DNA of 64,000 nucleotides from Pseudidiomarina sp. (GCA_048268755.1 JBLWUU010000002.1:241268-305267), one strand, 5' to 3'; positions 18,038 through 46,112 are shown, counted from the stretch's first letter. Translations and numbers: made by a program. The notes: generated from the sequence alone by a model not told the origin.

Positions 18038-18068
18038 TCAAACATCGAACAGCAAATAGCGAGCAACG
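18038..18068 (+). repeat. 4x heptamer element, copy A (rph-pyrE spacer)
   Basis: TCAAACA TCGAACA GCAAATA GCGAGCA ACG. Confidence 0.7.
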
Positions 18069-18074
18069 GGTCCC

Positions 18075-18719
18075 ATGAAACAGTACCAAAAAGATTTTAT
18101 TAGCTTCGCCATTGACCGTGGCGTTCTGAAATTCGGCGAATTCACTTTGAAGTCGGGCCGTACCAGCCCTTACTTTTTCAATGCCGGCTTGTTTAATCAC
18201 GGCGCTGATTTGGCCAAGCTGGGCCGTTTCTATGCTGCGGCATTGCAAGACAGCGCGGTCGATTACGATGTGTTGTTTGGCCCCGCCTACAAAGGTATTC
18301 CGATTGCGACGGCAGCTGCAATTGCACTGTATGACACGTATCAAAAAGACGTACCGTATTGCTTTAATCGCAAAGAAAAGAAAGACCACGGCGAAGGCGG
18401 CAACCTTGTGGGTTCGCCGTTGCAAGGTAAAGTGATGTTGGTGGACGATGTGATCACTGCCGGAACCGCGATTCGTGAGTCGATGGAAATTGTGCAAGCG
18501 AACAATGCTGAGTTGGCGGGCGTGCTGATTGCACTGGACCGCCAAGAAAAAGGTAAAGGCGAGCTAAGTGCGATTCAAGAAGTCGAACAAGACTTCGGCA
18601 CCAAAGTGGTGAGCATCGTCAAACTCAATGATGTTATTGAGTACTTAAAAGATAGCCCCGAGTTGGCTGAGCATCTCGAGGCTGTCAAAGCTTATCGTGC
18701 ACAATACGGCGTGGCTTAA
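18075..18719 (+). CDS. pyrE: Orotate phosphoribosyltransferase
   Basis: [31 protein letters not shown]. Confidence 0.98.
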
Positions 18720-18734
18720 ACCACGCCGCCGCTC

Positions 18735-20411
18735 TTAGAAGCTTTCAGAAGGCGCGTATTGCATGCCGATGCGCGCATTTTGCACCTGACACTCGGCGCC
18801 CGCCGTTTGAGTTTTAGTGTCTTCACCGCCTATTAAGGTCATGGTGAATTGTTCCCACTTCACTTCAACCACCTCGCGCTCACGACATAACAAACGCAAT
18901 GAATCATACAAGCCGCGATTCGCGATAAAGTTAGTGGTCGGCTCGACTTGCACTACTTGGGCATCTTCCGCAAAGCTTACCGCGTTCACATCATTACCGG
19001 TGAAGGTGCCAGCTGAGCCTGCCATCAAATAATGGAAGGTCGCAGCAACAGCGCGTTCGTTTTGTTGTGCGCCAGCAGCGAAGAAGACCCCACGCTCACC
19101 GGCCACTTTGAAGTCACCGCTGCGTAGGCTGACTAACAACGCGGTTTCGGCGTCGATTCCCACGGCTAAAGGTACGCGGTTGGTAGCTGCGACACGCAGT
19201 AAGCGTCCATGGTTACCTTCTTCGCCCATGCGCGTATCGACGGTGCCCCAGCGGAATAGACCGGCGCCACCGATGGGGTGATAAGCAACACTATTTTCGT
19301 TCAAATTACGTGGACAGGTATCGTCTTTGTGACAGCCCAAACCAGGCAAGCGCGTCGCGAATACGCCTGCTTTAAGTGCTTCACGGCTGCTGCCGCCGGC
19401 AATCATCGCTTGGCTGGTCATCACATTAGCAGAACGCCCAGCGGCAGCCACGACTAGCTTCTCTTCAGCGACACGTTCAGCGATGCCAACGGCTAATGCG
19501 TTGGGCTCGTTTAATTCAGTCACCAACAACGGGCGCAACAAGTCTGGGTTACCATCGGCAAAGAACAGCACATCAGCATTGCGGATTTGGGTGAGCGCGT
19601 CACCGGCTTCGCAGAACGCCAGTTGGCGTGCATGTAAATCGGCATGCACAACGTCACGGCGAAATGCGCTCATTTCACTTGCACGGTAATCGTTCAGTTG
19701 CTCACAGGCGTTGTCTTCACGGGCTGCTTTAACTGCTGCATCGATGGGTAACCACGAGGCATCAGCACCGGCGCCAGCGAAGGCTTGCAGATAGTAGTTA
19801 ACTAAGTCCAAGCTATCACGCTGGGCGGCAGTCACGACCAAAACATGAGGGGTCTCGTCACTACTTACTTTTTGTGCCTGCGACAAAATCTGTCGCATGT
19901 AGTCAATGTTCACTTGGCTCTTAGTCGCGGTTAGATTAACACCAAACGCAGCATCGCGCGGAACTGGCATTTCCAGATGGTCGATAATCAAGTCCCAATC
20001 ACGCTCAGATAACTGCTGGTACAAGTATTGGGTCGCGCGACGGGTAAACTCTTCGGTAAAGCTGCGCTCTGAAATAACGTCTTGCTTCACGCGATCTCGG
20101 AGCAATTCGATTGCTTCTTTCAGGTCATCTCGGGTATCACGGCGCAGCGGCGACCAGTTTTTATCGTCAAGCAAAGCCTCGACGTAGGGCCCGCTCAAAT
20201 TCACATAGCGGTCATAGCGCATGGCGTCACGGTCAATCCAGTCGGTATCGGCACAACGCTGCCAAGCCATGCTCGAACACACTTCGAGGGCATCACCTAG
20301 CAATACCAACGGATAGAAATCCGTTTCTTTTTCTTCTTGTGCTTGGCTTACGGGTGCCAGTGCGAATACTGACAGTAGCGCCAAGCCACAGGTGAATAGT
20401 GTTTTGCGCAT
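18735..20411 (-). CDS. Secreted cyanophycinase-like protein, catalytic motifs degenerate
   Basis: ATG 20411 with GAGGAG RBS and signal peptide; HVLVVTAA, GGAGLF, GRL, GID..TAL family landmarks. Confidence 0.7.
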   Translation of the reverse strand: MRKTLFTCGLALLSVFALAPVSQAQEEKETDFYPLVLLGDALEVCSSMAWQRCADTDWIDRDAMRYDRYVNLSGPYVEALLDDKNWSPLRRDTRDDLKEAIELLRDRVKQDVISERSFTEEFTRRATQYLYQQLSERDWDLIIDHLEMPVPRDAAFGVNLTATKSQVNIDYMRQILSQAQKVSSDETPHVLVVTAAQRDSLDLVNYYLQAFAGAGADASWLPIDAAVKAAREDNACEQLNDYRASEMSAFRRDVVHADLHARQLAFCEAGDALTQIRNADVLFFADGNPDLLRPLLVTELNEPNALAVGIAERVAEEKLVVAAAGRSANVMTSQAMIAGGSSREALKAGVFATRLPGLGCHKDDTCPRNLNENSVAYHPIGGAGLFRWGTVDTRMGEEGNHGRLLRVAATNRVPLAVGIDAETALLVSLRSGDFKVAGERGVFFAAGAQQNERAVAATFHYLMAGSAGTFTGNDVNAVSFAEDAQVVQVEPTTNFIANRGLYDSLRLLCREREVVEVKWEQFTMTLIGGEDTKTQTAGAECQVQNARIGMQYAPSESF

Positions 20412-20557
20412 GTACTTACTCCTCATTGACGTGCGTCTTCGCAATATGTTTTGCCCTAGCTTGCGCACAGTGTAACACCTTTTTTTGCCTATCCGAGGTG
20501 CTATACTGCAAGCCTAACTTGGTAATAACCATTTCGACCTTGGTTGGGGCGCAGAAG

Positions 20558-22021
20558 TTGCATACAATTTTCAATTCAAAACTCTTCAGCAAGCTCATCG
20601 TTGGGCTCTGCTTCGTGGTTGCGCCAGCGACATTTTCGCCTGTCGGCGAGGCCGCAGAGCAGCCGCAAGAGCTCGTATTTCGTATGCCCGACCCCTCACC
20701 GATCACCGACTATGCAGTATCCGTCATTACGGAGGTTTATAAAGAGTTGGGCATCAAAGTGAGTTTCGTCGAAATGCCACGCGACCGCAGTCTGACGGAA
20801 GCCAATAAGGGCCATATCTCCGGTGAGTTGGGCCGTTTGCCCAATATTGGTGAAGAGTATACCAACTTGGTCCGCATCGACTTTCCACTGTTTGACTCGC
20901 GCGTGCTATTAGTCGCGGATCGGCGCGATTGTGGTTTATGTAATTTCGAGGCCATTGAGAGCTATGCCTATATCGGCGGGACACAATCCGTTGAAAACGT
21001 TATTGCGCGGCAGACCGTCGAAAAACCAAGTATTAAAGTGGTCAACTTTGAGCAACTGCAGTTGTTGTATGAAAATGACCGCGTGCAGGCAGTTATCGTT
21101 AATGACTTCGAGGCCCAGCAGCTGCGTTCAATCAAGAGCCCCTACACGATTACAGTCCCGTATACGCGCAACACCGGGTATCACTTTCTCTACAAAGACT
21201 ATGCGTATTTAGTCCCGAAAGTCGAAGCAATCTTAGCGCGCATGGCGGCGAATGACCGCTTACGCGAAATCGCTCGCGCAACCAATGCAGAAATGCTCGT
21301 AACGCCCATGGTCAGCGCCACTTCAGAATTTGGCTCGGTCAGCATAACCGCTGGTCTACGAGAGAATTATATCGAGCTTGATGGCAGTGGTTATTACTGG
21401 GATCTAATGCGCCGCGTTTTCACTCCAGCAGCCAATGAGGTAGAGCTATTTGCCAATGGTCCAACGCGTGCTTACCTTGGTTACGTTGACGAACGGTTTG
21501 ATATTTTCGTGGGCGACTACACTGTAGCGACGCAAGCTCACTCAATTACCTCAAGGAATCATATCGATTTTGATCAAGGGCTCTTTTTATTCGCTCGAGA
21601 TGAAGAGACATTGAACAAGCTGAAAGCAGGTGAGCACCCACGACCCATTTGCCACATTCGTAGCTTTTCCTATAATTACCTGTTCCCAGAATCGACCTCG
21701 TTTTATGCTGCGGACGACCAACTTGATTGCTTTGCCATGCTCGATATGGGCCGCGTTGCTGGTGTGATTGATTACAGTGATCAGGCTCCGGAGTGGAGTG
21801 AGTACCCCTACAAGATTGCGCAAATTCGTGACCCTTTACCACTGCATGTGAAATTTCGTAATGACCCGCGCGGGCACCGCTTGCGGGACTGGTTTGACAG
21901 CGAACTGCGGCGCCTCGTCGAAAGTGGCGAGATCGCTGAGATTTACACCGAAGAAATACTGAAACGCAGCAAGTTTGATTTGAATATGCCCAAAGTTAAT
22001 ACGCCGCAAGGACCGCAATAA
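20558..22021 (+). CDS. Periplasmic protein with two tandem type-2 substrate-binding domains (start uncertain; TTG 20540 or 20558)
   Basis: Signal-like N-terminus; MPRDRSLTEANKG..SGELGR in domain 1; GYYWDLMRRVF, RAYLGY, GRVAGVID in domain 2. Confidence 0.65.
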   Translation: MHTIFNSKLFSKLIVGLCFVVAPATFSPVGEAAEQPQELVFRMPDPSPITDYAVSVITEVYKELGIKVSFVEMPRDRSLTEANKGHISGELGRLPNIGEEYTNLVRIDFPLFDSRVLLVADRRDCGLCNFEAIESYAYIGGTQSVENVIARQTVEKPSIKVVNFEQLQLLYENDRVQAVIVNDFEAQQLRSIKSPYTITVPYTRNTGYHFLYKDYAYLVPKVEAILARMAANDRLREIARATNAEMLVTPMVSATSEFGSVSITAGLRENYIELDGSGYYWDLMRRVFTPAANEVELFANGPTRAYLGYVDERFDIFVGDYTVATQAHSITSRNHIDFDQGLFLFARDEETLNKLKAGEHPRPICHIRSFSYNYLFPESTSFYAADDQLDCFAMLDMGRVAGVIDYSDQAPEWSEYPYKIAQIRDPLPLHVKFRNDPRGHRLRDWFDSELRRLVESGEIAEIYTEEILKRSKFDLNMPKVNTPQGPQ

Positions 22022-22486
22022 ATGTTTCATATTGCTCTGCACAACCCTGTGATGCCAGCTAATACTGGCAATATTATTCGACTCAGCGCCAACAACGGCT
22101 GTCAGTTACATCTCATTGAACCTTTGGGCTTCGACTTTGAAGAAAAGAAGCTGCGCCGCGCAGGGCTGGATTACCATGATTTAAGCAATGTGGCACGCTA
22201 CCCTGACTTTGCGTCTTTTGCACAAGCGATGGGCGAGCGTCCGATGTTCGCTTGCACCACGAAAGGCAGTAGCAACTATACGGCGGTCAGCTACCCCAGC
22301 GAATGTGTCTTACTATTTGGCTCTGAAACCAGTGGCTTGCCGGACAGTGTGCTCAGCCAATTTAAGCCCGAGCAACGCATTCGCATCCCGATGATGCCCA
22401 ACAATCGCTCGCTCAATCTTTCCAATGCGGTCGCAATCATAAGTTACGAAGCTTGGCGGCAACACAGTTTTGCTGGAGGCGCTTAG
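22022..22486 (+). CDS. trmL: tRNA (cytidine(34)-2'-O)-methyltransferase
   Basis: [34 protein letters not shown]. Confidence 0.95.
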
Positions 22487-23439
22487 TGGCAACCCAACGC
22501 GATTACGGATTTTGGGTCAAAGTTGCCACACGGGCCTCAGTAAGCGTCGCCTTTACGCTGATTGTCGTAAAGTTGTGGGCATGGATAGCGACGGATGCGT
22601 CAAGTATGTTGGCATCAGCGACCGACTCGATGCTCGACGGGCTTGCGTCTTTGTTTACCTTCTTTTCAGTCCGTTATGCGCTGCAGCCGGCCGATCGTGA
22701 ACACCGCTTCGGTCACGGTAAGGCGGAATCGCTGGCTGCGCTGGTACAATCGGCGTTAATTACTGGCTCGGCTATGTTATTGCTGGTCCATAGTGCGCAA
22801 CAACTCTGGCAGGGCAGTGTGGTGCAGCAAGCCGATATTGGCGTCTATGTGTCGCTGTTGGCTATTGCCCTGACATTGGCTCTGGTTATTCTGCAACGCG
22901 CTGCGATCCGTCATACGGACTCGAAAGCCATTGCCGCAGATCATCTGCATTTTCAATCTGACTTATTGCTCAATAGCGCGGTTATCGCTGCCCTATTGTT
23001 GAGCGCTTACGGTTGGTATTGGGCGGATAGCGTATTCGCAATCTTAATCGCGGTTTATCTTGCTTATGGCGCGATACGTATTGGCTGGGAGGCTTTTCAG
23101 GGGCTCATGGATCGCGAGTTGCCCGATGCAGACAAAGCACAGATTATCGCCGTGCTGCGCGCCACTAAAGGAATTCATGGTTGGCACGATTTACGTACCC
23201 GTGCTTCGGGGCCAACGCGCTTTATTCAGTGTCATGTGGAACTGAAAGATGAACTATCGCTGAAGACAGCGCACGATATTGCCGATGGCGCGGAGCAGCG
23301 CTTACGCGAACTCTTTCCAGATACCGATGTGATTATTCACATGGATCCGCTTTCTGCTGTTCCTGAGACGAGCGAGTTTCCTGAAACCACGCCACCGTCT
23401 GCTCCAGCGTTGGCTGACGATACACATCGGCCTCAATAA
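22486..23439 (+). CDS. fieF: Cation diffusion facilitator (FieF/YiiP)
   Basis: GTG start 22486; ATDS, PADREHRFGHGKAE, ADHLHFQSD, IHMDP. Confidence 0.9.
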   Translation: MATQRDYGFWVKVATRASVSVAFTLIVVKLWAWIATDASSMLASATDSMLDGLASLFTFFSVRYALQPADREHRFGHGKAESLAALVQSALITGSAMLLLVHSAQQLWQGSVVQQADIGVYVSLLAIALTLALVILQRAAIRHTDSKAIAADHLHFQSDLLLNSAVIAALLLSAYGWYWADSVFAILIAVYLAYGAIRIGWEAFQGLMDRELPDADKAQIIAVLRATKGIHGWHDLRTRASGPTRFIQCHVELKDELSLKTAHDIADGAEQRLRELFPDTDVIIHMDPLSAVPETSEFPETTPPSAPALADDTHRPQ

Positions 23440-24400
23440 AAAGCTCGTGTCGGGCGCCAGGAATGACCTCCAAGCGACTTTGCGGGTGCGACAGCGCACA
23501 CACGAACTCCGCCTGTCCGCGCGGGTCAACGACGGTATCGCTGCCCGCTTGTAACACCAACACAGGAATGTGGATATCGGCGGCTTCGGAGATCGCTTGG
23601 CGACTCGCTGATAATGCTTGTGATACCCAACGAAAACTTGGCCCGCCGAGCTTTACCTCTGGATGGTCTTGGTACAGTTGGCGGAAGGTTTGGTAGCGCG
23701 CCAGACTTTGACTCAGTTCATTTTGCGCAAACGGCACTTCGACATACTCACCGGTACCAATAATAAACCACGGCCGTTTAGGCATAAGTAAGTTGTTTAG
23801 TGCCGCGCCAGCATGAGCAAAGCCAGCGGCTAACCAATGCGGTATTTTGCCAGTCTGGATGCCAAACATGGGGGAACACAGCACGGCATTTTTGACCTTG
23901 TGCGGGTAACGAGCCAAATACAATGCGGCGATCGCACCGCCCATCGAGTGCGCCACTAACTGCAGCGGCAACTCTTTACCATAGTGTTCTTGTACTGCAG
24001 CTTCTGTAGCGCGCGTGAAAGCGGCAAAATCATCGACGAAATCGTCAAACCGGTCGACATGCCCATTATGCTCATGTGCTCCGAGCCGATCGGAATAGCC
24101 TTGCCCCCGATGGTCAACAATTGCCGTGGCGTAGCCCAACTGTGCCAACTCCCATACCAACTCTGGATATTTGATGGCCCCTTCGATGCGCCCTGGGCTG
24201 AGCAATACGACCGCTTTGGCGTTTTTCGGAAAAATATGGAAGTAACGTAAGGTGACATTATGGGGTCGTTCCATGTCGTGCATCTGCACATGCTGACGCC
24301 AAAACGGCATGACCGTGTCATTAAAAAAAGCCTGCCACGCTGACTTGTTATCGTCGCTAGGTTTTTCAGAAAGTGCTGTTACTAGATCTAGTTCGGACAC
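23333..24400 (-). CDS. pldB: Lysophospholipase L2-like alpha/beta hydrolase
   Basis: PGRIE...Y.E, DHRGQGYS, AHSMGG, GARHEL. Confidence 0.8.
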   Translation of the reverse strand: MSELDLVTALSEKPSDDNKSAWQAFFNDTVMPFWRQHVQMHDMERPHNVTLRYFHIFPKNAKAVVLLSPGRIEGAIKYPELVWELAQLGYATAIVDHRGQGYSDRLGAHEHNGHVDRFDDFVDDFAAFTRATEAAVQEHYGKELPLQLVAHSMGGAIAALYLARYPHKVKNAVLCSPMFGIQTGKIPHWLAAGFAHAGAALNNLLMPKRPWFIIGTGEYVEVPFAQNELSQSLARYQTFRQLYQDHPEVKLGGPSFRWVSQALSASRQAISEAADIHIPVLVLQAGSDTVVDPRGQAEFVCALSHPQSRLEVIPGARHELFIEADVYRQPTLEQTVAWFQETRSSQEQQKADPCE

Positions 24401-25747
24401 CTAGGTGCTCCTTTGTAAAGTCACCGCTACTTCTAAACCACCTTCGGGATGATTACGTGCATCAATATGGCCGCCGAGCACGGCTGCGGCACGCAGACTA
24501 AGTGCCATGCCGAGACCAACGCCCGCTTTGTGATTACGCGACGGGTCGGCACGATAAAATGGCGTGAAAAGCTGCTCCAACTGGTCTTCAGGTACCCCTT
24601 GACCATGGTCACGCACCAAAATAGTGTAACTCGCTGGCGCTGCCTGACAACTTATTTCGATCGTTTCATCCGTATATTGCAGCGCATTACGGATCAAGTT
24701 TTCAAGTATCAACCGCAGTAACTCAGGGTCACTGTCAATGACGGGCCAGTCGTCAGTCTCATGTACCTGCAATCGTTGACCGTGTTGCGCATCCACATAG
24801 CCCAAGTCTTTCACAAGCTGCGACACTAGCTGTCGCACATCAACGGGCTCAGCTTGCAACTTCACTAAGCCATTTTCCAAACGTGAAAGCGACAGGATAC
24901 GTTCGATAATCGTGCTGAGCCGCTCGAGATCGCGGCCCAGTTGACCTAAATGTTGCTCGCGCTCATTACCGTCGTCGTCATCTTGACTCAGCATGAGTGC
25001 AACCTGCATTCGCGCTAATGGCGAACGCAGCTCATGGGAAACATCCGAGAGTAAGCGCCGCTGCGCATCACGCGATACCGCGAGATCATATGCGGTGGTC
25101 GATAGCGCACGCGCCAGCTCACCGAGCTCATCATTGCGTTTAGGTAGACGCTTCAGATCTGGCTTTTCGCTGCCTTTGGCAATTTCACGGGTCGCGTGGG
25201 TTAAGCGCCTTAGCGGCATCACTAACCATGCACCGAGCAAAATTGCGATTGCTAAACTGCCGATTAATAGCGCTAGTGTTTGTACCCGCTGCGTTTGTTG
25301 TTCAGAGACCACTTGCTGTTCGCGTTCGTCAGCGGTAATAGGTCGGGTGACCAACAAGCTATAACCATCAAGCTTGAAGGGGCCAATGAGCATACGATTG
25401 CCAATGGGTAGTTGTTGCGGCTCTTCAGCTTCAAGTTGCGACAATAACAGGCGTCGGTGTGAGGCGCTTAAGCTGCGATCAAGCTGCAAACGTTCTTGCC
25501 CACTTGGTGCTAAGCTCGCTGCGACACGGTAGTCACCCGCCAACAAACGCCCAGGAGTCAGTGAACGAAAGGTGTTTACATCGGAAAGCAGCGGCGCCAG
25601 CGAGGACTGTACCGCTGCGGGCACGGGGCTTGGCGCTATCGGCTTGCTAAACCATAAGGCTAGCAAGTAACCACTGCTCGCCACTGCGAAGAGCAGGACC
25701 CAAAAAAGGAACAACAGTCGCAGTGAAAGCGAGTGGTACCAACGCAT
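24401..25747 (-). CDS. cpxA: Sensor histidine kinase, CpxA-like
   Basis: HAMP, DVSHELRSPL H-box, ENLIRNA, RDHGQG, GLGMA. Confidence 0.7.
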   Translation of the reverse strand: MRWYHSLSLRLLFLFWVLLFAVASSGYLLALWFSKPIAPSPVPAAVQSSLAPLLSDVNTFRSLTPGRLLAGDYRVAASLAPSGQERLQLDRSLSASHRRLLLSQLEAEEPQQLPIGNRMLIGPFKLDGYSLLVTRPITADEREQQVVSEQQTQRVQTLALLIGSLAIAILLGAWLVMPLRRLTHATREIAKGSEKPDLKRLPKRNDELGELARALSTTAYDLAVSRDAQRRLLSDVSHELRSPLARMQVALMLSQDDDDGNEREQHLGQLGRDLERLSTIIERILSLSRLENGLVKLQAEPVDVRQLVSQLVKDLGYVDAQHGQRLQVHETDDWPVIDSDPELLRLILENLIRNALQYTDETIEISCQAAPASYTILVRDHGQGVPEDQLEQLFTPFYRADPSRNHKAGVGLGMALSLRAAAVLGGHIDARNHPEGGLEVAVTLQRST

Positions 25748-25756
25748 CAGCTGGCC

Positions 25757-26434
25757 TTACGCGAACTGAATGATACGGTAACCGCGACCACGCACGGTCT
25801 GAATACGCTCTGGATCCGTCGGCAGCTTTTTACGAATGTTACTGATATGCACATCAAGACTGCGGTCGAAAGGTGCCAGCGAACGCCCAAGAGCGGCGAC
25901 TGAGAGCGCATCTTTGCTTACCACTTCGCCGTGGGCACGGACTAAAGTGCGCAGAATATCAAATTCGGTTGGCGTAAGGTCAAGTGCCGTTTCGTCGCAA
26001 ACCGCAGCGTTTTGCGCTGGGTCGATGGTGAAGCCAGCGTACTCGCTTTTCTCGGGGCGCACACTCGTGTGTGGCGTGCGGCGCAACAGTGCTTTGACCC
26101 GTGCCACCAACTCTTTCGGATAAAAGGGCTTGGGTAGATAATCGTCAGCACCTAATTCGAGGCCAGCAACACGATCGTCGTCGTCACCACGGGCGGTCAA
26201 CATGAGTACCGGCGTATTGCGTGCTTGCTGACGCAACCGTTGCAGTAATTGAAAGCCATCGATACCTGGCAACATAACGTCGAGCAAGATCAGATCGAAC
26301 GACCCGCTTAATGCGCGTTCCAGACCGGTCTCGCCGTCGGCGGCGAGGGTCAGCTGAAAGCCTTCCTTGGTGAGAATTTGCTCTAACATACTGCTTAGTT
26401 CAGCATCGTCATCAACAAGTAATATTTTGCTCAT
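25757..26434 (-). CDS. cpxR: OmpR-family response regulator, CpxR-like
   Basis: LLVDDD, LLDVMLP, DRSLDVHISNIRKK, TVRGRGY. Confidence 0.72.
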   Translation of the reverse strand: MSKILLVDDDAELSSMLEQILTKEGFQLTLAADGETGLERALSGSFDLILLDVMLPGIDGFQLLQRLRQQARNTPVLMLTARGDDDDRVAGLELGADDYLPKPFYPKELVARVKALLRRTPHTSVRPEKSEYAGFTIDPAQNAAVCDETALDLTPTEFDILRTLVRAHGEVVSKDALSVAALGRSLAPFDRSLDVHISNIRKKLPTDPERIQTVRGRGYRIIQFA

Positions 26435-26460
26435 AAGTTACCCTGTGTTGTTATTGTAGC

Positions 26461-26488
26461 TCTTTACAGACTAAGCATTATGTAAAGA
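26461..26488. promoter_or_regulatory. Inverted repeat with GTAAA half-sites upstream of cpxR-like gene
   Basis: TCTTTACA-N12-TGTAAAGA. Confidence 0.45.
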
Positions 26489-26510
26489 CACCTCTAAATA
26501 GATAGTCCAT

Positions 26511-27929: not shown

Positions 27930-27932
27930 GCC

Positions 27933-29027: not shown

Positions 29028-29028
29028 A

Positions 29029-31109: not shown

Positions 31110-31146
31110 GAAAAGCGTTGTTCGCTATTCGCTGTTTGCTGTTCGG
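31110..31146 (-). repeat. 4x heptamer element, copy B (glnA leader)
   Basis: Minus strand CCGAACA GCAAACA GCGAATA GCGAACA ACGCTTTTC. Confidence 0.8.
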
Positions 31147-35479: not shown

Positions 35480-35523
35480 TCGTTCCTCAAAATAGTGAGC
35501 ATAGCTAATAGTTTAGATTGTGC

Positions 35524-35547: not shown

Positions 35548-35631
35548 AAGTCTAGGCTGGTACAACCTCCGAAAAAATTAGCAAAACATATCCACACCCA
35601 TCTAAAAACTAGGTATGCTGGTCTTAAATTT

Positions 35632-35650
35632 ACTAATAATCATTCTTATT
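35632..35650. promoter_or_regulatory. Possible Fur box
   Basis: ACTAATAATCATTCTTATT, 15/19 to AATGATAATCATTATCATT; region is AT-rich. Confidence 0.4.
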
Positions 35651-35703
35651 GCACCCATACAAAGTCATGCAAGTTTGATTCATAGCCAAAGAAGAATGAT
35701 CCT

Positions 35704-38400: not shown

Positions 38401-38517
38401 CTGGCGTCTGTTAGGGTGACTGCGTATAATACGCCGCTATTTTAACCAATGACGGGAAACCGTCCGCGGCGATCACTTCTCAAAAAGTTTCATCTCGCGT
38501 TTTTACAGGCTTTATTA

Positions 38518-40356
38518 ATGACTATTCAAGCAACCGAACTTTCCAAATTACGCAATATTGCCATTATTGCGCACGTTGACCATGGCAAAACGACCCTTGT
38601 CGACAAGCTGTTACAGCAGTCTGGCACGCTCGAAAGCCGTGGTGGCGCAGAAGAGCGTATTATGGATAGCAACGATCTTGAAAAAGAGCGTGGCATTACC
38701 ATTCTGGCGAAAAACACCGCGGTTAACTACAAAGACTACCGTATCAACATCCTCGATACTCCAGGGCACGCCGATTTCGGTGGTGAAGTTGAACGTGTAT
38801 TGTCGATGGCCGATTCAGTATTGCTGGTTGTTGACGCTGTTGACGGCCCAATGCCACAAACCCGCTTCGTTACCCAAAAAGCTTTTAATCACGGCCTCAA
38901 GCCAATTGTCGTGGTAAACAAAATTGACCGCCCTGGCGCGCGCCCTGACTGGGTTGTGGACCAAGTTTTTGATTTGTTCGATAACCTTGGCGCAACCGAC
39001 GAGCAGTTGGACTTCCCGATTGTTTACGCCTCAGCGTTGAACGGTTTTGCAACCCTTGACCCAGATTCGCCTAGCGAAGATATGACGCCATTGTTTGAGA
39101 CCATCCTTGAGCGTGTATCTGCGCCTGACGCAGACCGTGATGGCCCATTGCAAATGCAAGTTTCACAGCTCGATTACTCAAGCTACTTGGGCATTATTGG
39201 TATCGGTCGTATCAAGCGCGGTACCTTAAAGTTGAATCAACAGGTCAACATCATTGGTGCTGACGGCTCGCAACGTAACGGTAAAGTTGGCCAAATCTTT
39301 GGTTACCTTGGTCTTGAGCGTATTGAGACCGACACAGCCAGTGCCGGCGACATCGTTGCTTTCACTGGTCTGGGTGAACTGAAGATTTCTGATACTATCT
39401 GTGCTGCCGGTCATCCTGAAGCGCTACCTGCGCTAAGTGTTGATGAACCAACAGTGACCATGACCTTCCAGGTCAACACCTCACCGTTTGCTGGTAAAGA
39501 AGGTAAGTTCGTTACCTCGCGCCAGATTCTTGAGCGCTTACAACAAGAGCTTAAGCATAACGTTGCCTTGCGCGTTGAAGAAACCGACAACCCTGACCGC
39601 TTCCGTGTCTCCGGTCGTGGTGAATTGCACTTAGGCGTATTGATTGAAAATATGCGTCGTGAAGGTTTCGAGCTAGCGGTATCACGCCCTGAAGTTATTA
39701 TCCGCGAAGTTGACGGCGTCAAAGAAGAACCGTTTGAGAACTTGACCGTGGACATTGAAGAGCAGCACCAAGGTGCGGTCATGGAAAAACTTGGCTTACG
39801 TAAAGCCGAGATGACCAACATGACACCAGACGGCAAAGGCCGTGTGCGCGTTGACTTCATGGTACCTAGCCGTGGTTTGATTGGTTTCCAAACCGAGTTT
39901 ATGACGCTGACCTCAGGTTCTGGCTTAATGTACAAAACCTTCGACCATTACGGCCCACACAAAGGCGGTAAAATCGGCCAGCGCATGAACGGTGTATTGA
40001 TTTCAAACGCCACCGGTAAAGCATTGACGTACGCCCTGTTCAACCTACAGGAGCGTGGTAAGTTGATGGCCTCACACGGTGATGAAGTGTACGAAGGCCA
40101 AATCATTGGTGTGCACAACCGTGGTAATGACCTTACCGTTAACTGTTTGAAAGGTAAGCAGCTGACCAACGTGCGTGCGTCTGGTACCGATGATGCGTTG
40201 ACGTTGTCGCCGCCGATCCGTTTGACACTTGAGCAAGCACTTGAGTTTATCGATGACGATGAGTTGGTAGAAATTACGCCGAAGTCGATCCGTATTCGTA
40301 AACGTTTGCTTACCGAAACCGAGCGTAAGCGCGCGAGTCGTAGTAAAGAAGGCTAA
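38518..40356 (+). CDS. typA: Translational GTPase TypA/BipA
   Basis: [28 protein letters not shown]; start 38518 preferred. Confidence 0.98.
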
Positions 40357-40363
40357 ACCAAGC

Positions 40364-41917
40364 TTAACTTTCAGCTGAATCAGAGGCCGCGACCACACAG
40401 TCGCGGCCTTTTTGTTTGGCTTGATATAGCAATTTATCAGCGGCATCGAGCGCCTTGTCTAGACTTTGCTGAGGATCCCAAGCGATCACTCCAGCACTGA
40501 GCGAAACACTAAACTGCTCATTGTCACTGGTAAATGGCTGCCCCTTGAAGGCTGCGGACAGTTGCTCGACTTTCTTCGCCGCATCGGCCGCAGAGCTGCC
40601 ATCAAGAATCAAGGTAAACTCCTCGCCACCGGTGCGCGCGCAAATATCGGTATCACGGAACTGACGGCGCAGCTCCTCAGCCAAAGCAACGAGCACTTCG
40701 TCGCCCATTGCGTGCCCATAACGGTCGTTCACCTGCTTGAAGTGATCTAAATCCAGCATGACCACCGCCAGCGCTTGGCCGTGACGCTTGGCTTGCGCCT
40801 GTAACTTTTCTGCTTGCGTGAATAACGCACGGCGATTCACTAGCCCAGTAAGACTGTCGGTTGTAGCAAGTTTTTTAAGAGCTTGGTTCTTCTCGCGCAA
40901 TTGCTCGGTGCGTTCCTTGACCTCTTGCTCCAAGCGCTGGCTTAAATCAGCAAAAGGCCGAGCGATGCGTCCCGCGCTTATCCAACCGATTAGGGCAAAG
41001 GCGAGAGCAACCGCGAGGCCAATCCACGCCGCTTGCCAACGTAACTCGGTGACGGGATGCAGCGCTAGCTCAATGGGTTCACGGACGATGATCTGCCATT
41101 CCGGCCCACGATAGTCCGGGCCACTTTTAATTTTCGCATAGCCAATCAGATATTGATTACCATCAATCCATTCTTGTACATCCCAACCACGTGCAATGAC
41201 CTGCGGGTTCAGTTGGGTTGCCAACGGCTGCTCCTGCAAACTGTCGGGCCCTAACAAAATTTGATTTTCGGAGCTAACGAGCAAAATGTCGGTTCCGGGC
41301 AGCGACTGTAAGCTCGCCATGGCTCGCCGCTCCACCTGTTCCGCCCATTGCCAGTTTAAGTGACTGCCCAAAACCCCCCATACTTGACCGTCGGGAGTTT
41401 GCAATGGAACTGATACATCAACGAAGCGTAAGGGCTCATTGCCCCCTGGGTTGAGGATTTTTTCTAAGAGCAATGCACCGTGCACATCACCTATATAATA
41501 AGGTTGCTGCAACGCTTGCTCGAACCAAGGCCGAGCACTTACATCAGCGCCTTTGAGAACGTCATTTGCGCTCACCAACACACGGCCATCGGCATCTGTC
41601 GCGCCTATCCAGGCATAAGCGTCGTAGCTTTCGAAGACTTCAGAAACCAAGTTAGCGAGTTGCTCCTGCTCTTGTGCGTTTTGTGGTGGGGACATTAGAC
41701 GCGCTGCGGTTTGTAGGTCACGGAGACGTTCAATCATGCCGCGTTCAAGTTGATAACTCACTTGTTGCGCGACGTTGGCTAAACTCAGACCAACCTGTTG
41801 TTGAATTTGGCGTGTTGCCGCCTGAGTTAAAATTGCGGTAATGATGATCGAAAGGAGCAGCCCGAAGCCTGCATAGATCATGAACCAACGAATTTTAAGG
41901 TTCACTGGCACTAGCAT
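40364..41917 (-). CDS. Cache-sensor diguanylate cyclase
   Basis: Two TM helices flanking a Cache-like domain; TDSLTG, DLDHFKQVND, RDTD I-site, GGEEF. Confidence 0.88.
   Translation of the reverse strand: MLVPVNLKIRWFMIYAGFGLLLSIIITAILTQAATRQIQQQVGLSLANVAQQVSYQLERGMIERLRDLQTAARLMSPPQNAQEQEQLANLVSEVFESYDAYAWIGATDADGRVLVSANDVLKGADVSARPWFEQALQQPYYIGDVHGALLLEKILNPGGNEPLRFVDVSVPLQTPDGQVWGVLGSHLNWQWAEQVERRAMASLQSLPGTDILLVSSENQILLGPDSLQEQPLATQLNPQVIARGWDVQEWIDGNQYLIGYAKIKSGPDYRGPEWQIIVREPIELALHPVTELRWQAAWIGLAVALAFALIGWISAGRIARPFADLSQRLEQEVKERTEQLREKNQALKKLATTDSLTGLVNRRALFTQAEKLQAQAKRHGQALAVVMLDLDHFKQVNDRYGHAMGDEVLVALAEELRRQFRDTDICARTGGEEFTLILDGSSAADAAKKVEQLSAAFKGQPFTSDNEQFSVSLSAGVIAWDPQQSLDKALDAADKLLYQAKQKGRDCVVAASDSAES
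40384..40413 (+). terminator. Intrinsic terminator after typA
   Basis: AGGCCGCGAC-CACACA-GTCGCGGCCT followed by T run. Confidence 0.85.
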
Positions 41918-41920
41918 GCA

Positions 41921-42586
41921 TTACACCATGTCGGGGTGGGGCAGCACGTAATAAAAGATGGAGAAAAAATGCAGCACACTGCCAGCGAGAACAAACACGT
42001 GCCAGATGGCGTGATGAAATTTTAACGATTTCCAGACGTAAAAAATGACGCCTAAACTATAGGCTAAACCACCTGCCAACAGCAGCAGTAGCCCGCCGCT
42101 GTCGACAAATGTCAGCATTGGTTTGATGGCGATAACAGCCATCCATCCCAAGCCCAAATAGAGTGTCAGCGAGAGCCACTTCTTGCGGTTTTCTATCGCC
42201 AACTCAAGTATCACGCCAAAAATGGCGATACTCCAAACAATACCTAACAGCGCCCAGCCCCAAGGACCGCGTAGATTCACCAGGGCGAATGGCGTGTACG
42301 TGCCAGCAATAAGCAAGTAAATTGCAGCGTGGTCCATTTGTTGGAAAAAGCTTTTCACTCGCGGCCACGGGAATGCATGATAGAACGTCGAAGCCAAATA
42401 CAATATGATCAGACTGGCACCATAAATGCTCGCACTTACCACATGCCAAGCATCACCGTAGGCCACAGCCCACACCAACATTACCACTAGACCAACGATA
42501 CTGGCGATAGCACCAATACCGTGGGTCACTGCATGTGCGACTTCTTCAGCGATGCTGTAAGCCTTCGGTTTGCTCACTTTGCTCAA
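41921..42586 (-). CDS. Hemolysin III / PAQR-family membrane protein (YqfA-like)
   Basis: EEVAHAVTHG, STFYH, DHAAIYLLIAGTYTPF, HAIWHVFV. Confidence 0.9.
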   Translation of the reverse strand: MSKVSKPKAYSIAEEVAHAVTHGIGAIASIVGLVVMLVWAVAYGDAWHVVSASIYGASLIILYLASTFYHAFPWPRVKSFFQQMDHAAIYLLIAGTYTPFALVNLRGPWGWALLGIVWSIAIFGVILELAIENRKKWLSLTLYLGLGWMAVIAIKPMLTFVDSGGLLLLLAGGLAYSLGVIFYVWKSLKFHHAIWHVFVLAGSVLHFFSIFYYVLPHPDMV

Positions 42587-42605
42587 CGTTTACTCTCTCA
42601 ACGAC

Positions 42606-42902
42606 TTAACGATGCGTTTCTTCAGGATCTTCGCGACCCGGCTTATGATAATCACGACTAATTTGCTCAAGCTTGCGCATAAACATGTCAAAGTCGCGCT
42701 CACTGTTGTAATCGAAGTGATATTTATTATGGAACTCGAGGCGCATTTGTACGTTATGCCCTTCAATAAAAAGCGTGTAACCATCGTGATCGGTATACGC
42801 TGTTATTCCCTCAAGGGTATGCTTGCCTTGTTCAGCTTTACCATGCTCATGAATCTTCTCATAAGCGTCGAGCACTAATCTTTGATCAACTTCGTTTTTC
42901 AT
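42606..42902 (-). CDS. DUF3081-like small protein
   Basis: FEKI..HG-like start, LEGITAYTDHDGYT, FHNKYHFDY. Confidence 0.7.
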   Translation of the reverse strand: MKNEVDQRLVLDAYEKIHEHGKAEQGKHTLEGITAYTDHDGYTLFIEGHNVQMRLEFHNKYHFDYNSERDFDMFMRKLEQISRDYHKPGREDPEETHR

Positions 42903-42971
42903 GGTTGCGCTCCTTTTTCTTCAGTATATCTACAAAATGAGGCCTTTTCCTATCAATTACAACCCGGCTTT

Positions 42972-42995
42972 TACATACATACATGAATGTTTGTT
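42972..42995. promoter_or_regulatory. AcrR-type operator
   Basis: TACATACATACATGAATGTTTGTT, 19/24 identical to the E. coli AcrR site TACATACATTCACAAATGTATGTA; overlaps the likely -35 region of the TetR gene (TATAAT at 43006-43011). Confidence 0.7.
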
Positions 42996-43041
42996 TAATA
43001 TGCGGTATAATCTTCGGCAGTTGTCTAACTTGAGGTGAAAT

Positions 43042-43665
43042 GTGGTTCGACGTACCAAAGCAGATGCCCTTACAACCAAAAATGAGTTGCTTGACGCCGC
43101 TGAACGTTTATTCAGTGAGCGCGGGGTATCTAACACATCGATGATGCAAGTTGCAGAGGCTGCGGGCGTTACCCGCGGTGCCATCTACCATCATTTCGAA
43201 AACAAGCTCGATCTTATCTACGCACTTATGGAGCGAGTTAGTTTACCGGTCGACGAAATGCGTGATGAATTACGTGCCCAATTGCCGGACGAACCGCTAC
43301 GCCAACTCCGTGAGCGCGCCTTGCATATTGTGCATCAAGTTCAATATGATCCTCACATGCAAGCGCTCGTTAATATTCTTTGCCATAAGTGTGAGTACGT
43401 TGAAGACACGCTACCGATTCACCTACGTCACTTAAGCGGTCGTAACGAGTGCATCGAGGAGTTCATCAAGCTCATCGAGTTGGCCCAGCAACAGGGGAGC
43501 GTGAGCCCTGATTTGGAGCCGAAGACATTCGTTATCGGTCTGTTTGCCTTGGTTGACGGCCTATTCTACAACTGGCTTCTCGATACCGATTACTTTGACC
43601 TATGTACCGCTGCAGAGCGCACAATTGATACCTACCTAGCCGGTATTCAAAAGCAGGGCACCTAG
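43042..43665 (+). CDS. TetR-family regulator, AcrR/TtgR-like
   Basis: MVRRTKADA, GVTRGAIYHHFENK, ILCHKCEY. Confidence 0.9.
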   Translation: MVRRTKADALTTKNELLDAAERLFSERGVSNTSMMQVAEAAGVTRGAIYHHFENKLDLIYALMERVSLPVDEMRDELRAQLPDEPLRQLRERALHIVHQVQYDPHMQALVNILCHKCEYVEDTLPIHLRHLSGRNECIEEFIKLIELAQQQGSVSPDLEPKTFVIGLFALVDGLFYNWLLDTDYFDLCTAAERTIDTYLAGIQKQGT

Positions 43666-44159
43666 CCCTGCTTGTCGCGGCGGAAACTCGTTTTCCAACC
43701 TTTATATTTTTTATGCACGCCGCGGGTCAGTGACTGAAAGTAGTCTTCCATCAAGTCGACACCAAACAGCACGCCGACCACAACGACCGATAACTTAATC
43801 GAGGTTTCTAAGTGGCCGAGGCCGATTGCCACACCGATCGAAGCCAATGCCCAAATGGTCGCGGCCGAGGTAACGCCGACAACGACCCCATCGCGCGCCA
43901 GCATAACCCCTGCACCTAAAAAGCCGATGCCAGTAATCACCTGACCGATGATCCGCGAAGGGTCAGTTGCTTCGGTCATCACCGAAGCTGCACCTACAAT
44001 AAACAGGTAGGTACCAAGGGTGATTAGCGATGAGGTGCGAATCCCCACTGGCTTGCCGCGCATCTGCCGTTCGAAACCGACCAACGTACCGCACAATAGC
44101 GCGGTACCAATGGCTGGCCAGGTAAAAGGCTCGATTACAAGCAGTTGCTGCCAGTCCAC
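43662..44159 (-). CDS. MgtC/SapB-family membrane protein
   Basis: GFERQ..GKPVGIRT, DPSRIIGQVITGIGFLGAG, TSAATIW. Confidence 0.88.
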   Translation of the reverse strand: MDWQQLLVIEPFTWPAIGTALLCGTLVGFERQMRGKPVGIRTSSLITLGTYLFIVGAASVMTEATDPSRIIGQVITGIGFLGAGVMLARDGVVVGVTSAATIWALASIGVAIGLGHLETSIKLSVVVVGVLFGVDLMEDYFQSLTRGVHKKYKGWKTSFRRDKQG

Positions 44160-44165
44160 AGCTGT

Positions 44166-44678
44166 TTAATCTCCTTGCTTAAGGAAATTACCGAGAAAGG
44201 TCGCGTCTAGCTCTGCGATTTTCTCTGCATCCGTCTTGGCAATACTTGCCACTGCAGGCGCAACCCACGCCCCTAAGTTTGCCAACACCCCGCGTAGATC
44301 AGTCATCGCGCGCACAGCACCAAATTGTCCCGGCGAAGCGCCTGCTAACAGAACCGTCTTACCCATCCAAGGGTTGGTGTCGAGGCGCGAACTCCAATCA
44401 ATCGCATTTTTCAATAACGGCGGAATCGACGCATTGTACTCCGGCGTCACCACCACGATTTTGCTCGCTTCTGAAATAGCCGTTGCCAACTTCTGAATAT
44501 TGCTCGGTACGCCGTTTTCTTCTTCGTAGTCGCCTTGATAGAGCGGAGCATCAAGTTCAGCCGGTGGGTACACGTAGCATTGCTCGCCGTTTAACTCAGC
44601 CACCTCAGCTAAACGCTCTTGTAAGCGACGATTAATTGAAGCTTGGCGGCTGCTTCCTGCGATGATCAATAAACTCAT
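44166..44678 (-). CDS. NADPH-dependent FMN reductase
   Basis: AGSSRQASIN, TPEYNASIP..LKNAIDW, SPGQFGAVRA. Confidence 0.9.
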   Translation of the reverse strand: MSLLIIAGSSRQASINRRLQERLAEVAELNGEQCYVYPPAELDAPLYQGDYEEENGVPSNIQKLATAISEASKIVVVTPEYNASIPPLLKNAIDWSSRLDTNPWMGKTVLLAGASPGQFGAVRAMTDLRGVLANLGAWVAPAVASIAKTDAEKIAELDATFLGNFLKQGD

Positions 44679-45319
44679 TATTGTCCCTCCTGCATAGCTT
44701 GAATAAAGGCGTCGGACTCGGCGATCGCCGCTTCCATTTCTTTGATTAACTCGGCAACGTCTGCTTGTAAACTACGGTACTCCCCACGAATGGCGTCGAC
44801 AGCAGCGGCGTTAAGATTATGCTTTAAGTACAACACATTATCTTGCAGCTTTTCCAGAACTGGATCCATCGTTGCGGCAGCGCGCTCCATGCTCTGTAAC
44901 AACGCGCTATAGCGTCGCTCAGTATCGCGTAGTGAGCGTTCACTCTGACGGCGTAAATTATCATTGCTGTATTCTTCTAACTCATCGCGCCATTCATCAA
45001 ATAGGTCTTGGGCGACGTCATCAATGGCTTCAATGCGGTCATATACACGCTCGGCAGCGGCAACACTTGCTTCGTAATCTGAATTCAATGCTTTGTATTG
45101 GGCTTCGAGTTCGCCGCCATCAATTTGCAGCATTTCATCGAGGCGTTCGAGTGCTGATTTAAATTCTTCTTGGGCATCCGCTTGCGCATCTCGCGCGTCA
45201 TCGACGCGATCGACCAGAATATCGCGTTTATGAATACCCACCTTTTCCATGGCACCGTAGTAGGCGCTTTGACAACCCGCTAAAAAAACCACGGCTGTCG
45301 CGATTGTTAACCAACGCAT
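44678..45319 (-). CDS. DUF2959 family lipoprotein
   Basis: LAGC lipobox, YYGAMEKVGIHKRDILVDRV, LKHNLNA. Confidence 0.88.
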   Translation of the reverse strand: MRWLTIATAVVFLAGCQSAYYGAMEKVGIHKRDILVDRVDDARDAQADAQEEFKSALERLDEMLQIDGGELEAQYKALNSDYEASVAAAERVYDRIEAIDDVAQDLFDEWRDELEEYSNDNLRRQSERSLRDTERRYSALLQSMERAAATMDPVLEKLQDNVLYLKHNLNAAAVDAIRGEYRSLQADVAELIKEMEAAIAESDAFIQAMQEGQ

Positions 45320-45349
45320 CGCGCTTCTCCTTTTGGATAGGGAAACAGA

Positions 45350-46051
45350 TTAATAAGGTAACTCAGTTCCATCCCAGTGTAGCAGCTTGCCGCTTTGCTC
45401 CGTAGTCAAATTTTCAATCACCTGCGCGATGCGTTGCGCAGACAGCTCTGGCGTGTAAAGTTTGTCCGCAGGCAAGCGTTCTTGGAACGGCGCCGACAAT
45501 TGAGTATCTGTGGTCCCAGGATGGATCGCCGCAATGATCAGTTGCTTATGGCTACGCCCCAGCTCAATAGAAGCCGTTTTCAACAACATGTTCAACGCCG
45601 CTTTGCTAGCGCGGTAGCTATACCATCCGCCTAAGTAATTGTCGGTAATGCTGCCCACCTTGGCACTAAGCTGAACCCAGAAGGCCGACTTCTTGCGTGG
45701 TAACTTTGGCAACACCTGTTCCAGTAATAAAATAGGTAAAATGGCGTTCACTTCGAACGAATGTCGCAATTGCTTTGCATTGACCGCCCCCAAATGCTTC
45801 TCCGGCATAAAGTCATCGTTGTGCAGCATACCCAAGGTACTTATCACACCATCGAGGTCATTAAGTTGCTCTGTCTCGGCTTCGAGCTGCTCAGGTGCGT
45901 AGCCGCCGACAACGCGCCACTGCAAATTTTCATGCATAAACGGCGCTTCCCGCCGGCTCCAAGCCGTCACCAGCACACCTTCATTCAAGTAATGCGTGAC
46001 CAAGGCTTGCCCTAGTCCCCCACCAGCACCAACCACCAAAACATGCTTCAT
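45350..46051 (-). CDS. SDR oxidoreductase (CsgA/C-factor-like)
   Basis: GAGGGLG, LSAKVGSITDN..GGWYSYRASKAALN, HPGTTDT. Confidence 0.88.
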   Translation of the reverse strand: MKHVLVVGAGGGLGQALVTHYLNEGVLVTAWSRREAPFMHENLQWRVVGGYAPEQLEAETEQLNDLDGVISTLGMLHNDDFMPEKHLGAVNAKQLRHSFEVNAILPILLLEQVLPKLPRKKSAFWVQLSAKVGSITDNYLGGWYSYRASKAALNMLLKTASIELGRSHKQLIIAAIHPGTTDTQLSAPFQERLPADKLYTPELSAQRIAQVIENLTTEQSGKLLHWDGTELPY

Positions 46052-46075
46052 ATGCTTCGTTCCCCTCCTAGGCCA

Positions 46076-46112
46076 TCGAACATCAAACAGCGAACAGCAA
46101 ACAACGCTTTTC
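46076..46112 (+). repeat. 4x heptamer element, copy C (SDR/yihY divergent spacer)
   Basis: TCGAACA TCAAACA GCGAACA GCAAACA ACGCTTTTC; 33/37 identical to copy B. Confidence 0.8.

Follow-up and report, generated by a model that had tools for sequence, protein, structure and literature searches.

Three short heptamer arrays of Pseudidiomarina sp., located at pyrE, at glnA and in the spacer between an SDR gene and yihY, are solo or near-solo, strongly asymmetric arms of a genus-wide family of intergenic palindromes. They lie in a window of 64,000 nt, C2:241268-305267, from a draft genome (G000) that measures 2.75 Mb and has a G+C content of 50%, and are called copies A, B and C here. The GlnA protein shares 92% identity with its counterpart in Pseudidiomarina fusca, which places the genome in this genus. 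Our favoured explanation, to which we assign a probability of about 60%, is that these arrays are solo or asymmetric arms of a Pseudidiomarina-specific intergenic family, that this family comprises relatives, devoid of an open reading frame (ORF), of the arms that bracket an intervening sequence (IVS)-type cassette with a PF05635 gene, and that it is maintained together with the PF05635 protein. For decades, tandem repeats of 7 nt have been reported to be in excess in the intergenic DNA of bacteria (STRR sequences, Xanthomonas and Beggiatoaceae), with no mechanism to account for it. The three copies in the window are:

18038-18071, plus strand: copy A, TCAAACA TCGAACA GCAAATA GCGAGCA followed by ACGG, in the spacer that separates the stop codon of rph from the ATG of pyrE
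31110-31146, minus strand: copy B, CCGAACA GCAAACA GCGAATA GCGAACA followed by the tail ACGCTTTTC, at the start of the glnA 5' leader
46076-46112, plus strand: copy C, TCGAACA TCAAACA GCGAACA GCAAACA followed by the tail ACGCTTTTC, in the spacer between the divergent SDR and yihY genes

The coordinates of these arrays and their distances to the neighbouring genes agree in full with a preliminary description of the same DNA, and recounting gave the same identities, i.e. 33/37 between copies B and C and 25/31 between copy A and each of the other two. A degenerate 18-mer pattern has eight overlapping matches in the window, all of them at the three loci, where 0.27 are expected, and none of 100 shuffles reached eight. 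Tandem Repeats Finder called a period of 7 at copies B and C.

Anatomy of the palindrome family

Arms were identified across G000 by a regular-expression scan, followed by an nhmmer profile search. The genome-wide scan, which the preliminary description had proposed as a check, revealed 50 loci with a total of 79 significant arms, whose arrays comprise 3-11 units, and the arrays are thus not private to pyrE, glnA and yihY. The family is intergenic: 70 of the 79 arms are located outside crude ORF calls, which cover 93.7% of the genome and leave only ~6% of it, and those of the remaining arms that were inspected sit in over-extended calls. A fuzzy search with a 15-nt inner motif and three mismatches returned mainly random coding matches and was discarded.

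The arm is a defined 29-mer and not a plain microsatellite. It consists of the units GCGAACA, GCGAATA and GCAAACA, followed by ACGCTTTT; the preferred bases differ among units 1-3, with GCGAACAGCGAATAGCAAACAACGCTTTT as the consensus of the arm. Most arms occur in pairs: 25 loci have two significant arms each, which invariably face outward (minus, then plus) and result in the palindrome AAAAGCG-[TGTTCGC]3…[GCGAACA]3-ACGCTTTT, i.e. AAAAGCGTTGTTCGC…centre…GCGAACAACGCTTTT. The centre consists of TGTTTGTTTAAACAAACA or else contains an added motif, for example ACGCTCACTGCGTTCGC. Many apparent solo arms retain a decayed partner arm, and directly 5' of copy A, at ~18030-18037, a one-unit leftover of the opposite arm, TTATTGTT, is present. 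The preliminary description had kept a lineage-specific dispersed simple repeat as its fallback, which was right but understated what is in fact a genus-wide family of heptamer-armed palindromes.

Arm ends are found directly at stop codons (-2 to +5 nt) or 0-35 nt before start codons, where they often touch the Shine-Dalgarno sequence; the longest G000 arrays noted (6-11 units) lie immediately 5' of start codons. A strand bias relative to genes, which was among the properties to be checked, is not observed: solo arms point toward a gene start in 11 cases and toward a gene end in 13, all arms taken together are about equally distributed, and the asymmetric full element occurs in both orientations relative to genes. 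The downstream genes, read by eye, include prpC, prpE, acs, a thiolase gene, gcdH, kynA, kynU, iscR, hscA, ispH, ahcY, ribF and regulators. Many of them are catabolic, but they do not share one pathway, and the idea of a functional enrichment for a single regulon was dropped on this by-eye reading. A search of the element consensus for a promoter gave no convincing -35/-10 sequences.

The fold energies of paired elements range from -25 to -50 kcal/mol, and the consensus AAAAGCG-stem…stem-CGCTTTT places a GC-closed stem between an A tract and a T tract. Such an architecture is reminiscent of bidirectional intrinsic terminators, and the solo arms would then be decayed halves; the ~20 cases of an arm located immediately at a stop codon (-2 to +5 nt), as well as a canonical terminator at three of six sites that are without the element in the congeneric genome G046, speak for this explanation. 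We nevertheless consider it very improbable that termination is the main role of the paired elements, because many of them are placed within operons (prpB-prpC, hscB-hscA) or so close to the next start codon (10-20 nt) that a promoter would not fit, several sites have a separate canonical terminator in addition, loops of 20-80 nt are poorly suited, and copies A, B and C display neither a hairpin nor a terminator call. The hairpins of co-transcribed paired copies might act as RNase III sites, comparable to rRNA intervening sequences, or as terminator-like structures. Among 11 co-directional hairpins, the sense strand is the stabler one in seven and the antisense strand in four, a split that gives no transcribed-strand signal.

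The PF05635 cassette beside rpsT

The distribution of the arrays was surveyed in 39 genomes of the genus with the pattern CGAAYAN, repeated three times and followed by CG, allowing at most one mismatch. Arrays were found in 27 of these genomes, with 4 to ~250 pattern matches per array-bearing genome, and the reversed pattern, used as a control, had no match in any genus genome save one. The family is restricted to the genus: in a further 58 genera of the same taxonomic family and in 30 further families of the order, only isolated arrays were found, and plasmid and phage collections gave no similarity to the full element.

A PF05635 gene is present as a single copy in 26 of the 39 genomes, and its occurrence parallels that of the arrays. 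Both are present in 25 genomes and both are missing in 11, while two genomes have arrays only and one has the gene only. The gene-only genome (G014) contains long CCAATAA arrays, which are outside the survey pattern. In the two arrays-only genomes (G011 and G041) the PF05635 gene has been lost, the locus is rearranged, and the arrays are few and degenerate. G022 has retained only a C-terminal fragment of the gene, with no arms at this position and no arrays anywhere in the genome.

In G000, the gene is located outside the window at C1:1097067-1097375 and its product matches PF05635 (E 6e-36) and TIGR02436 (E 6e-35), with weak similarity to bAvd/Avd. At every PF05635-positive locus of the genus that was read, the gene is found beside the rpsT promoter region with inverted heptamer arrays on both sides; the other side of the cassette is occupied by murJ or another protein gene, and the cassette is not inserted in 23S rRNA. 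The G000 cassette (C1:1097001-1097459) is bounded by inverted ends of 37 nt (CCGTTATTCGTTATTCGTACGCTTCGCTGTTCGTCCG and the complement), which are 97% identical, and the ORF extends at its 3' end into the right arm. The cassette's 37-nt ends are also carried, together with inner modules, by at least five ORF-less loci of G000 (91-97% identity), which relate to the cassette as a transposable element of the miniature inverted-repeat type (MITE) does to its parent. Copies A, B and C neither carry nor flank a PF05635 ORF; their array type is that of the arms flanking the cassettes of G023 and G170, a tie that is one of sequence only.

These last two cassettes belong to the second of two deep clades (100/99 support) in a tree of 23 PF05635 proteins of the genus. 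Clade I proteins are always accompanied by CGAATAA or CCAATAA arms, while the arms of clade II are of the GCGAACA/TCGAACA, CTAATAT, AGCAACT, TAGCTAG or GTGAATG type. Mapping the arm type on the protein tree requires six changes, which is the minimum, and none of 200 shuffles is as low. The protein tree and its arm types are not congruent with genome relatedness, as the sister genomes G000 and G023 carry a clade I and a clade II cassette, respectively, and the same applies to G166 (clade I) and G043 (clade II) despite near-identical flanks. Because of this conflict, the gene and its arms have to be regarded as a unit that is exchanged between species at a fixed site.

The same association is found in unrelated bacteria. 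Eight distant PF05635 genes were sampled from Oceanimonas, Terriglobus, metagenome-assembled genomes (MAGs) of Selenomonadaceae and metagenome contigs; all eight adjoin heptamer arrays with a unit type of their own, and in seven of them the arrays are inverted. Three Selenomonadaceae-like MAGs carry the gene at the same site (thrC-asd) between different inverted arms (TAGTGAA, AGTAAAG and ATAGTAA), which mirrors the cassette swapping in Pseudidiomarina. The best PDB match of the G000 protein is 2GSC (E 2e-26, five chains), which corresponds to XCC0516 of Xanthomonas campestris, and repeat #15 of the Xanthomonas GGGAATC family overlaps the XCC0516 start codon (supplementary table, PMC4692102). 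The Xanthomonas heptamers form 70-75 convergent pairs, are ~90% intergenic and occupy sites common to two species (PMC4692102). In the S23p intervening sequences, the ORF is placed in the loop of a stem that is formed by terminal inverted repeats and cut by RNase III (PMC4990558). The literature searched contained no paper that links PF05635 to heptamer repeats and none with these repeat strings, and the joining of intergenic heptamer families with IVS-type PF05635 cassettes is the first in print that we found.

According to the favoured explanation, the family would have originated as non-autonomous offspring of an IVS-type cassette, whose PF05635 product falls into the family of S23p, the intervening-sequence protein of 23S rRNA, and is distantly Avd-like. 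The four-helix-bundle protein would recognise the heptamer arrays and would be needed to maintain or to spread them, and unit numbers may change by slippage. The solo copies at pyrE, glnA and yihY would then be by-products without a role of their own. The preliminary description had suggested an RNA-binding protein, Hfq-like or otherwise, as partner of the repeats; a partner is plausible, but the evidence favours the PF05635 four-helix-bundle protein and not Hfq.

Alternatively, the arrays could be ordinary selfish or neutral palindromic repeats, similar to repetitive extragenic palindromes (REPs), MITEs or STRR sequences, which are kept by slippage and gene conversion, with PF05635 as a roleless occupant of the loop. 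The dispersed, intergenic location of the arrays, a copy number that varies from 0 to ~250 pattern matches per genome, copies near contig ends, the en-bloc replacement of arrays at the same site and the missing strand signal in hairpin stability are all in line with this possibility, and GTAG-type REPs inserted into palindrome centres of G023 indicate that the centres accept insertions. Yet we regard it as rather improbable. Such repeats would not be expected to co-occur with one gene in the proportions given above (25 / 2 / 1 / 11), nor would loss of this gene be expected to coincide with loss or decay of the arrays, as is seen in G022 and in G011/G041. In addition, the arm type follows the protein tree exactly, the eight unrelated PF05635 genes, which come from other phyla, all have their own heptamer arrays, a GGGAATC array overlaps Xanthomonas XCC0516, and the 37-nt ends of the cassette recur on ORF-less copies.

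Conservation of sites and turnover of units

The predominant unit differs between species, with GCGAACA, GCAAATA and TCGAACA in G000, G023, G011 and G041, and ACGAATA and ACGAACA in G046, G121 and G005. The sites themselves are widely conserved. In G023, the closest genome (~91% identity over the glnA region), 25 of the 26 sites examined carry an array, and in G046, which has ACGAATA units and flanks that are 68-88% identical, 13-14 of 20 tested sites are occupied (p ~7e-13, computed against an assumed background occupancy of 5%). Thus, conservation across relatives, another of the checks named in the preliminary description, holds for the sites, which are kept between species, while unit number and unit type vary.

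Differences between species involve whole 7-nt units. One TCGAACA site comprises 10 units in G000 but 18 in G023, a 14-nt gap is present at another site, and whole arms are found duplicated. At some sites, all units are of a different type in G000 and G023. A change of every unit is not producible by point mutation at the divergence of these two genomes; at fixed sites, whole arrays differ en bloc.

Copies A, B and C differ in age, as is visible from their distribution among the genomes of the genus:

Copy A (pyrE): array present in eight species (G000, G023, G017, G013, G008, G007, G005 and G046), its units differing from species to species; G012 and G022 have variant repeats; absent in G011, G041, G009 and the basal G018 and G010
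Copy B (glnA): array present in G000, G023, G011, G041 and G007; absent in other genus members with a readable leader
Copy C (SDR/yihY): array present in G000, G023, G011 and G041; absent in G008, G007, G017, G013 and G005

At the site of copy C, G011 has four units and G041 has two, which corresponds to a two-unit difference of 14 nt. The variant in the rph-pyrE spacer of G022 consists of three CATAAGAGG-like repeats with a period of 9-11 nt, each of which contains a Shine-Dalgarno-like AAGAGG.

Two neighbouring features in the window provide the context for copies B and C:

31172-31156, minus strand: glnA sigma-54 promoter, TGGCAC-N5-TTGCA, outside the repeat and immediately 5' of copy B
46121-46154, plus strand: block CTTTACGCAA…GGATTATAGTG, directly 3' of copy C, candidate yihY promoter

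Copy B starts ~10 nt past the TTGCA of the sigma-54 promoter, which is the expected start of the glnA transcript, and copy A (18038-18068 without its last G) ends 6 nt 5' of the pyrE ATG at 18075; both positions had been correctly given in the preliminary description. The sigma-54 promoter of glnA is kept throughout the genus, and no other array of the genome has a sigma-54-like site at a distance of 120 nt or less. The block CTTTACGCAA…GGATTATAGTG is kept in all nine Pseudidiomarina species compared, with no conservation in the remaining spacer; it is probably the yihY promoter and scores below the threshold of a simple consensus promoter scan. Since copy C is located just upstream of this presumed promoter, it lies outside the presumed yihY transcript and is antisense to the SDR gene. 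The caution of the preliminary description about the transcribed strand of copy C was fair.

RNA folding of copies A, B and C indicated no more structure than in shuffled controls (z -0.35 to -0.97), and promoter and terminator scans made no call on the copies or in their window spacers. An Rfam scan of the window returned nothing at the arrays. The earlier statement that no standard feature explains the arrays is thus valid with respect to Rfam, but the literature describes similar heptamer families in Xanthomonas, in Nostoc and in Beggiatoaceae (PMC4692102, PMC4679880). Similarly, the earlier proposal of an A/C-rich RNA element was correct in that the copies are unstructured, but a Hfq-like site on the sense strand is not supported, with arms in both orientations and copy C off the presumed yihY transcript. 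Sense-strand RNA sites in general (the Hfq ARN motif, the Crc CA motif and HutP-like sites) are likewise not supported, as a consistent sense orientation is missing both among the solo arms and among all arms.

The arrays could also be cis-regulatory sites of the host that are kept by selection, either as single-stranded A/C-rich leader elements (translation enhancer, standby site or operator, read by S1, a cold-shock protein or Hfq) or as contiguous 7-bp DNA boxes for cooperative binding by a ribbon-helix-helix (RHH)-type protein. This is the least unlikely of the rival explanations, although we still consider it unlikely. It is in agreement with the ~30 of 79 arms that end 0-35 nt before a start codon on the same strand, often at the Shine-Dalgarno sequence, which several of these genes lack, and with the positioning of the longest arrays just 5' of start codons. 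The pyrE array is retained in eight species in spite of a spacer that is otherwise unalignable, and copies A, B and C are unstructured. Four of the seven heptamer positions appear constrained: between G000 and G023, positions 2, 4, 5 and 7 differ by 3-6% and positions 1, 3 and 6 by 17-22% (Fisher 6e-12), a contrast that register slippage and the ascertainment on G000 exaggerate, and after correction the constrained positions are about as slow as coding flanks, not slower.

A regulatory role has also been put forward for the TAACTGA repeats of Beggiatoaceae (PMC4679880), and readers with a period of 7 exist both for DNA, as the omega/ParB proteins (PMC9499535), and for RNA, as HutP (PMC2425495). 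The preliminary description had pointed out that a 7-bp period does not match the helical repeat of DNA; such a period is nevertheless compatible with DNA binding, as the RHH protein ParB/omega occupies contiguous 7-bp heptads, in which one protein subunit is bound per period-7 unit and three to four units form a functional block (PMC9499535). Against a regulatory role, the arms face stop codons as often as start codons, the element occurs in both orientations, solo arms in 3' regions are antisense, the downstream genes, read by eye, have no single pathway in common, the pyrE array has been lost in G011, G041 and G009, and copy C is not part of the presumed yihY transcript. As for candidate readers, HutP was rejected because PF09021 was found in none of the 39 genus genomes, while the control search detected the HutP of B. 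subtilis. Omega_Repress (PF07764) gave no match in the same genomes, a negative that is tempered by control genomes that were equally silent.

Several observations weigh against the favoured link between the arrays and the PF05635 protein. That the protein binds the arrays is a step which we infer, and we know of no catalytic activity in the PF05635 family. The unit types of cassette and dispersed arms do not always correspond: the clade I cassette of G000 has CGAATAA arms, yet most dispersed arms in this genome are of the GCGAACA type, which is consistent with a recent cassette swap, and the cassette of G121 has CTAATAT arms, yet many of its dispersed arrays are of the CGAAYA type. The PF05635 gene of G046 (G046:C1:73731-74030), the genome that is richest in arrays, contains an in-frame TGA at a position where its relatives have a Cys codon; the gene has either been inactivated recently or been sequenced with an error. 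The co-occurrence of gene and arrays is partly phylogenetic, as many array-free genomes appear to be confined to a few lineages, and only G022 and G011/G041 look like independent losses.

Concerning the sites, conservation across ~25% flank divergence is as compatible with a function that has been retained as with a selfish repeat, and the corrected rates at the constrained heptamer positions do not fall below those of coding flanks. No clean pair of an empty and a filled site and no target-site duplication at the element ends was found, with sites being occupied in nearly all array-bearing relatives and other flanks being too diverged, and transposition is therefore not demonstrated. Finally, a regulatory role in the host is possible for some arrays, in particular for the one at pyrE, which is present in eight species and where the Shine-Dalgarno sequence is often missing.

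Relation to known repeat systems and further repeats

The arrays share several features with published heptamer families, i.e. the GGGAATC repeats of Xanthomonas (PMC4692102), the cyanobacterial STRR sequences with GGGGAYT in Nostoc, and the TAACTGA repeats of Beggiatoaceae and cyanobacteria (PMC4679880). These families also consist of tandem 7-nt units, typically 3-14 per array, are ~90% intergenic, dispersed and lineage-specific, and are found close to gene ends and starts; relatives differ in 7-nt steps, and the Xanthomonas repeats include 70-75 inverted pairs and occupy sites common to two species. In contrast to these families, the Pseudidiomarina unit NCGAAYA is not G-rich and has no quadruplex potential, and the arm has a set order of three units followed by the ACGCTTTT tail. 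A link to PF05635 is supported here but is not mentioned in those papers, and the overlap with XCC0516 is listed in the Xanthomonas table without comment.

The cassette resembles the 23S rRNA intervening sequences with an S23p ORF in Coxiella and Leptospira (PMC4990558), in which a PF05635 ORF is also located in the loop of a stem made of terminal inverted repeats. These intervening sequences have a sporadic distribution, are regarded as selfish and are cleaved by RNase III in the stem (PMC4990558); the distribution of the Pseudidiomarina elements is likewise sporadic. Different from the rRNA elements, the Pseudidiomarina cassette is placed in a spacer between protein genes by rpsT, has arms of tandem heptamers and is accompanied by tens of ORF-less relatives.

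REP, BIME and REPIN sequences with their RAYT proteins (PMC2817692, PMC3116915, PMC3333891) are comparable in being intergenic palindromic mosaics with a species-specific consensus that are co-transcribed with their neighbours and tied to a single-copy gene which is itself flanked by the repeat. The Pseudidiomarina arms, however, have neither a GTAG/CGTC head nor a short GC-rich stem, they are not associated with a Y1 transposase, and the candidate partner is a four-helix bundle and not a HUH nuclease. A RAYT/Y1 transposase was rejected as the mobiliser, because Y1_Tnp is absent in the array-rich genomes G046, G121, G166 and G021 and present in the array-free genomes G167, G018, G010 and G022; in G000, the Y1_Tnp gene is flanked by an unrelated repeat.

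Likewise, MITEs such as Correia, ERIC and RUP have parallels in the 37-nt terminal inverted repeats of the cassette, in the short ORF-less derivatives of a gene-bearing parent and in the location next to Shine-Dalgarno sequences and stop codons. Unlike MITEs, the parent is devoid of a transposase, no target-site duplication is seen, and the sites are stable across species and not polymorphic. A MITE in the full sense was rejected, as the parent ORF encodes a four-helix bundle and not a transposase and no target-site duplication is visible.

Two further systems provide analogies of mechanism only. The RHH protein omega (ParB) of pSM19035 binds contiguous 7-bp heptads in direct and inverted orientation (PMC9499535), an architecture that the Pseudidiomarina arrays have as well, and HutP binds RNA sites in which XAG and a 4-nt spacer occur three times (PMC2425495), with one subunit per period-7 unit; the HutP gene, as stated above, is absent from the genus.

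A wider and clearly more tentative proposal is that PF05635/TIGR02436 proteins are dedicated trans-acting partners of bacterial heptamer repeats in general. Each protein variant would recognise a specific unit, with one subunit of an oligomeric ring per unit, and would, together with host enzymes, maintain, homogenise and seed heptamer-armed hairpins. If this is true, it would account for the heptamer excess in Xanthomonas, cyanobacteria (STRR), Beggiatoaceae, Acidobacteria and Pseudidiomarina, and would define a new kind of genetic element that combines a protein with a repeat and lacks a transposase. It would also offer a testable hypothesis for PF05635, a very common family of unknown function that is annotated only as 'four helix bundle protein' and has relatives in rRNA intervening sequences and in diversity-generating retroelements. 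The genus provides a natural experiment for this purpose, as ~40 related genomes are available, some of which have the repeats and some of which do not, together with a single candidate gene at a fixed locus, several protein variants with their own arm unit, and lineages that have lost the gene together with the repeats or have kept degenerate ones. For genome annotation, the pyrE and glnA arrays should not be taken as gene-specific regulatory motifs without experiment.

A second repeat family is present in the same genomes. It consists of GTAG-headed REPs, GTAGCCCG…CGGG, with 18 copies in G000, and was recognised in alignments of G023, G011, G041, G017 and G013. REPs of the GTAGCCCG type are inserted into the centres of several heptamer palindromes of G023, and in G011 they flank a 1.5-kb insert between rph and pyrE.

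In the window, a single Rfam match exceeds the gathering score, an L31 ribosomal-protein leader (RF03157) at 62093-62141 on the plus strand, with 51 bits. Elsewhere in G000, at C1 ~933,480 and upstream of a transporter gene, a heptamer of another type, (GCATAAC)4, lies beside a standard arm. Unusually long heptamer arrays are located directly 5' of the hipB-like gene of a hipB/hipA-like pair (C1:1332200-1332555 in G000) in G000, G023 and G046. The array has ~12 units in G046 and is longer in G023 than in G000, and its unit type differs in each species.

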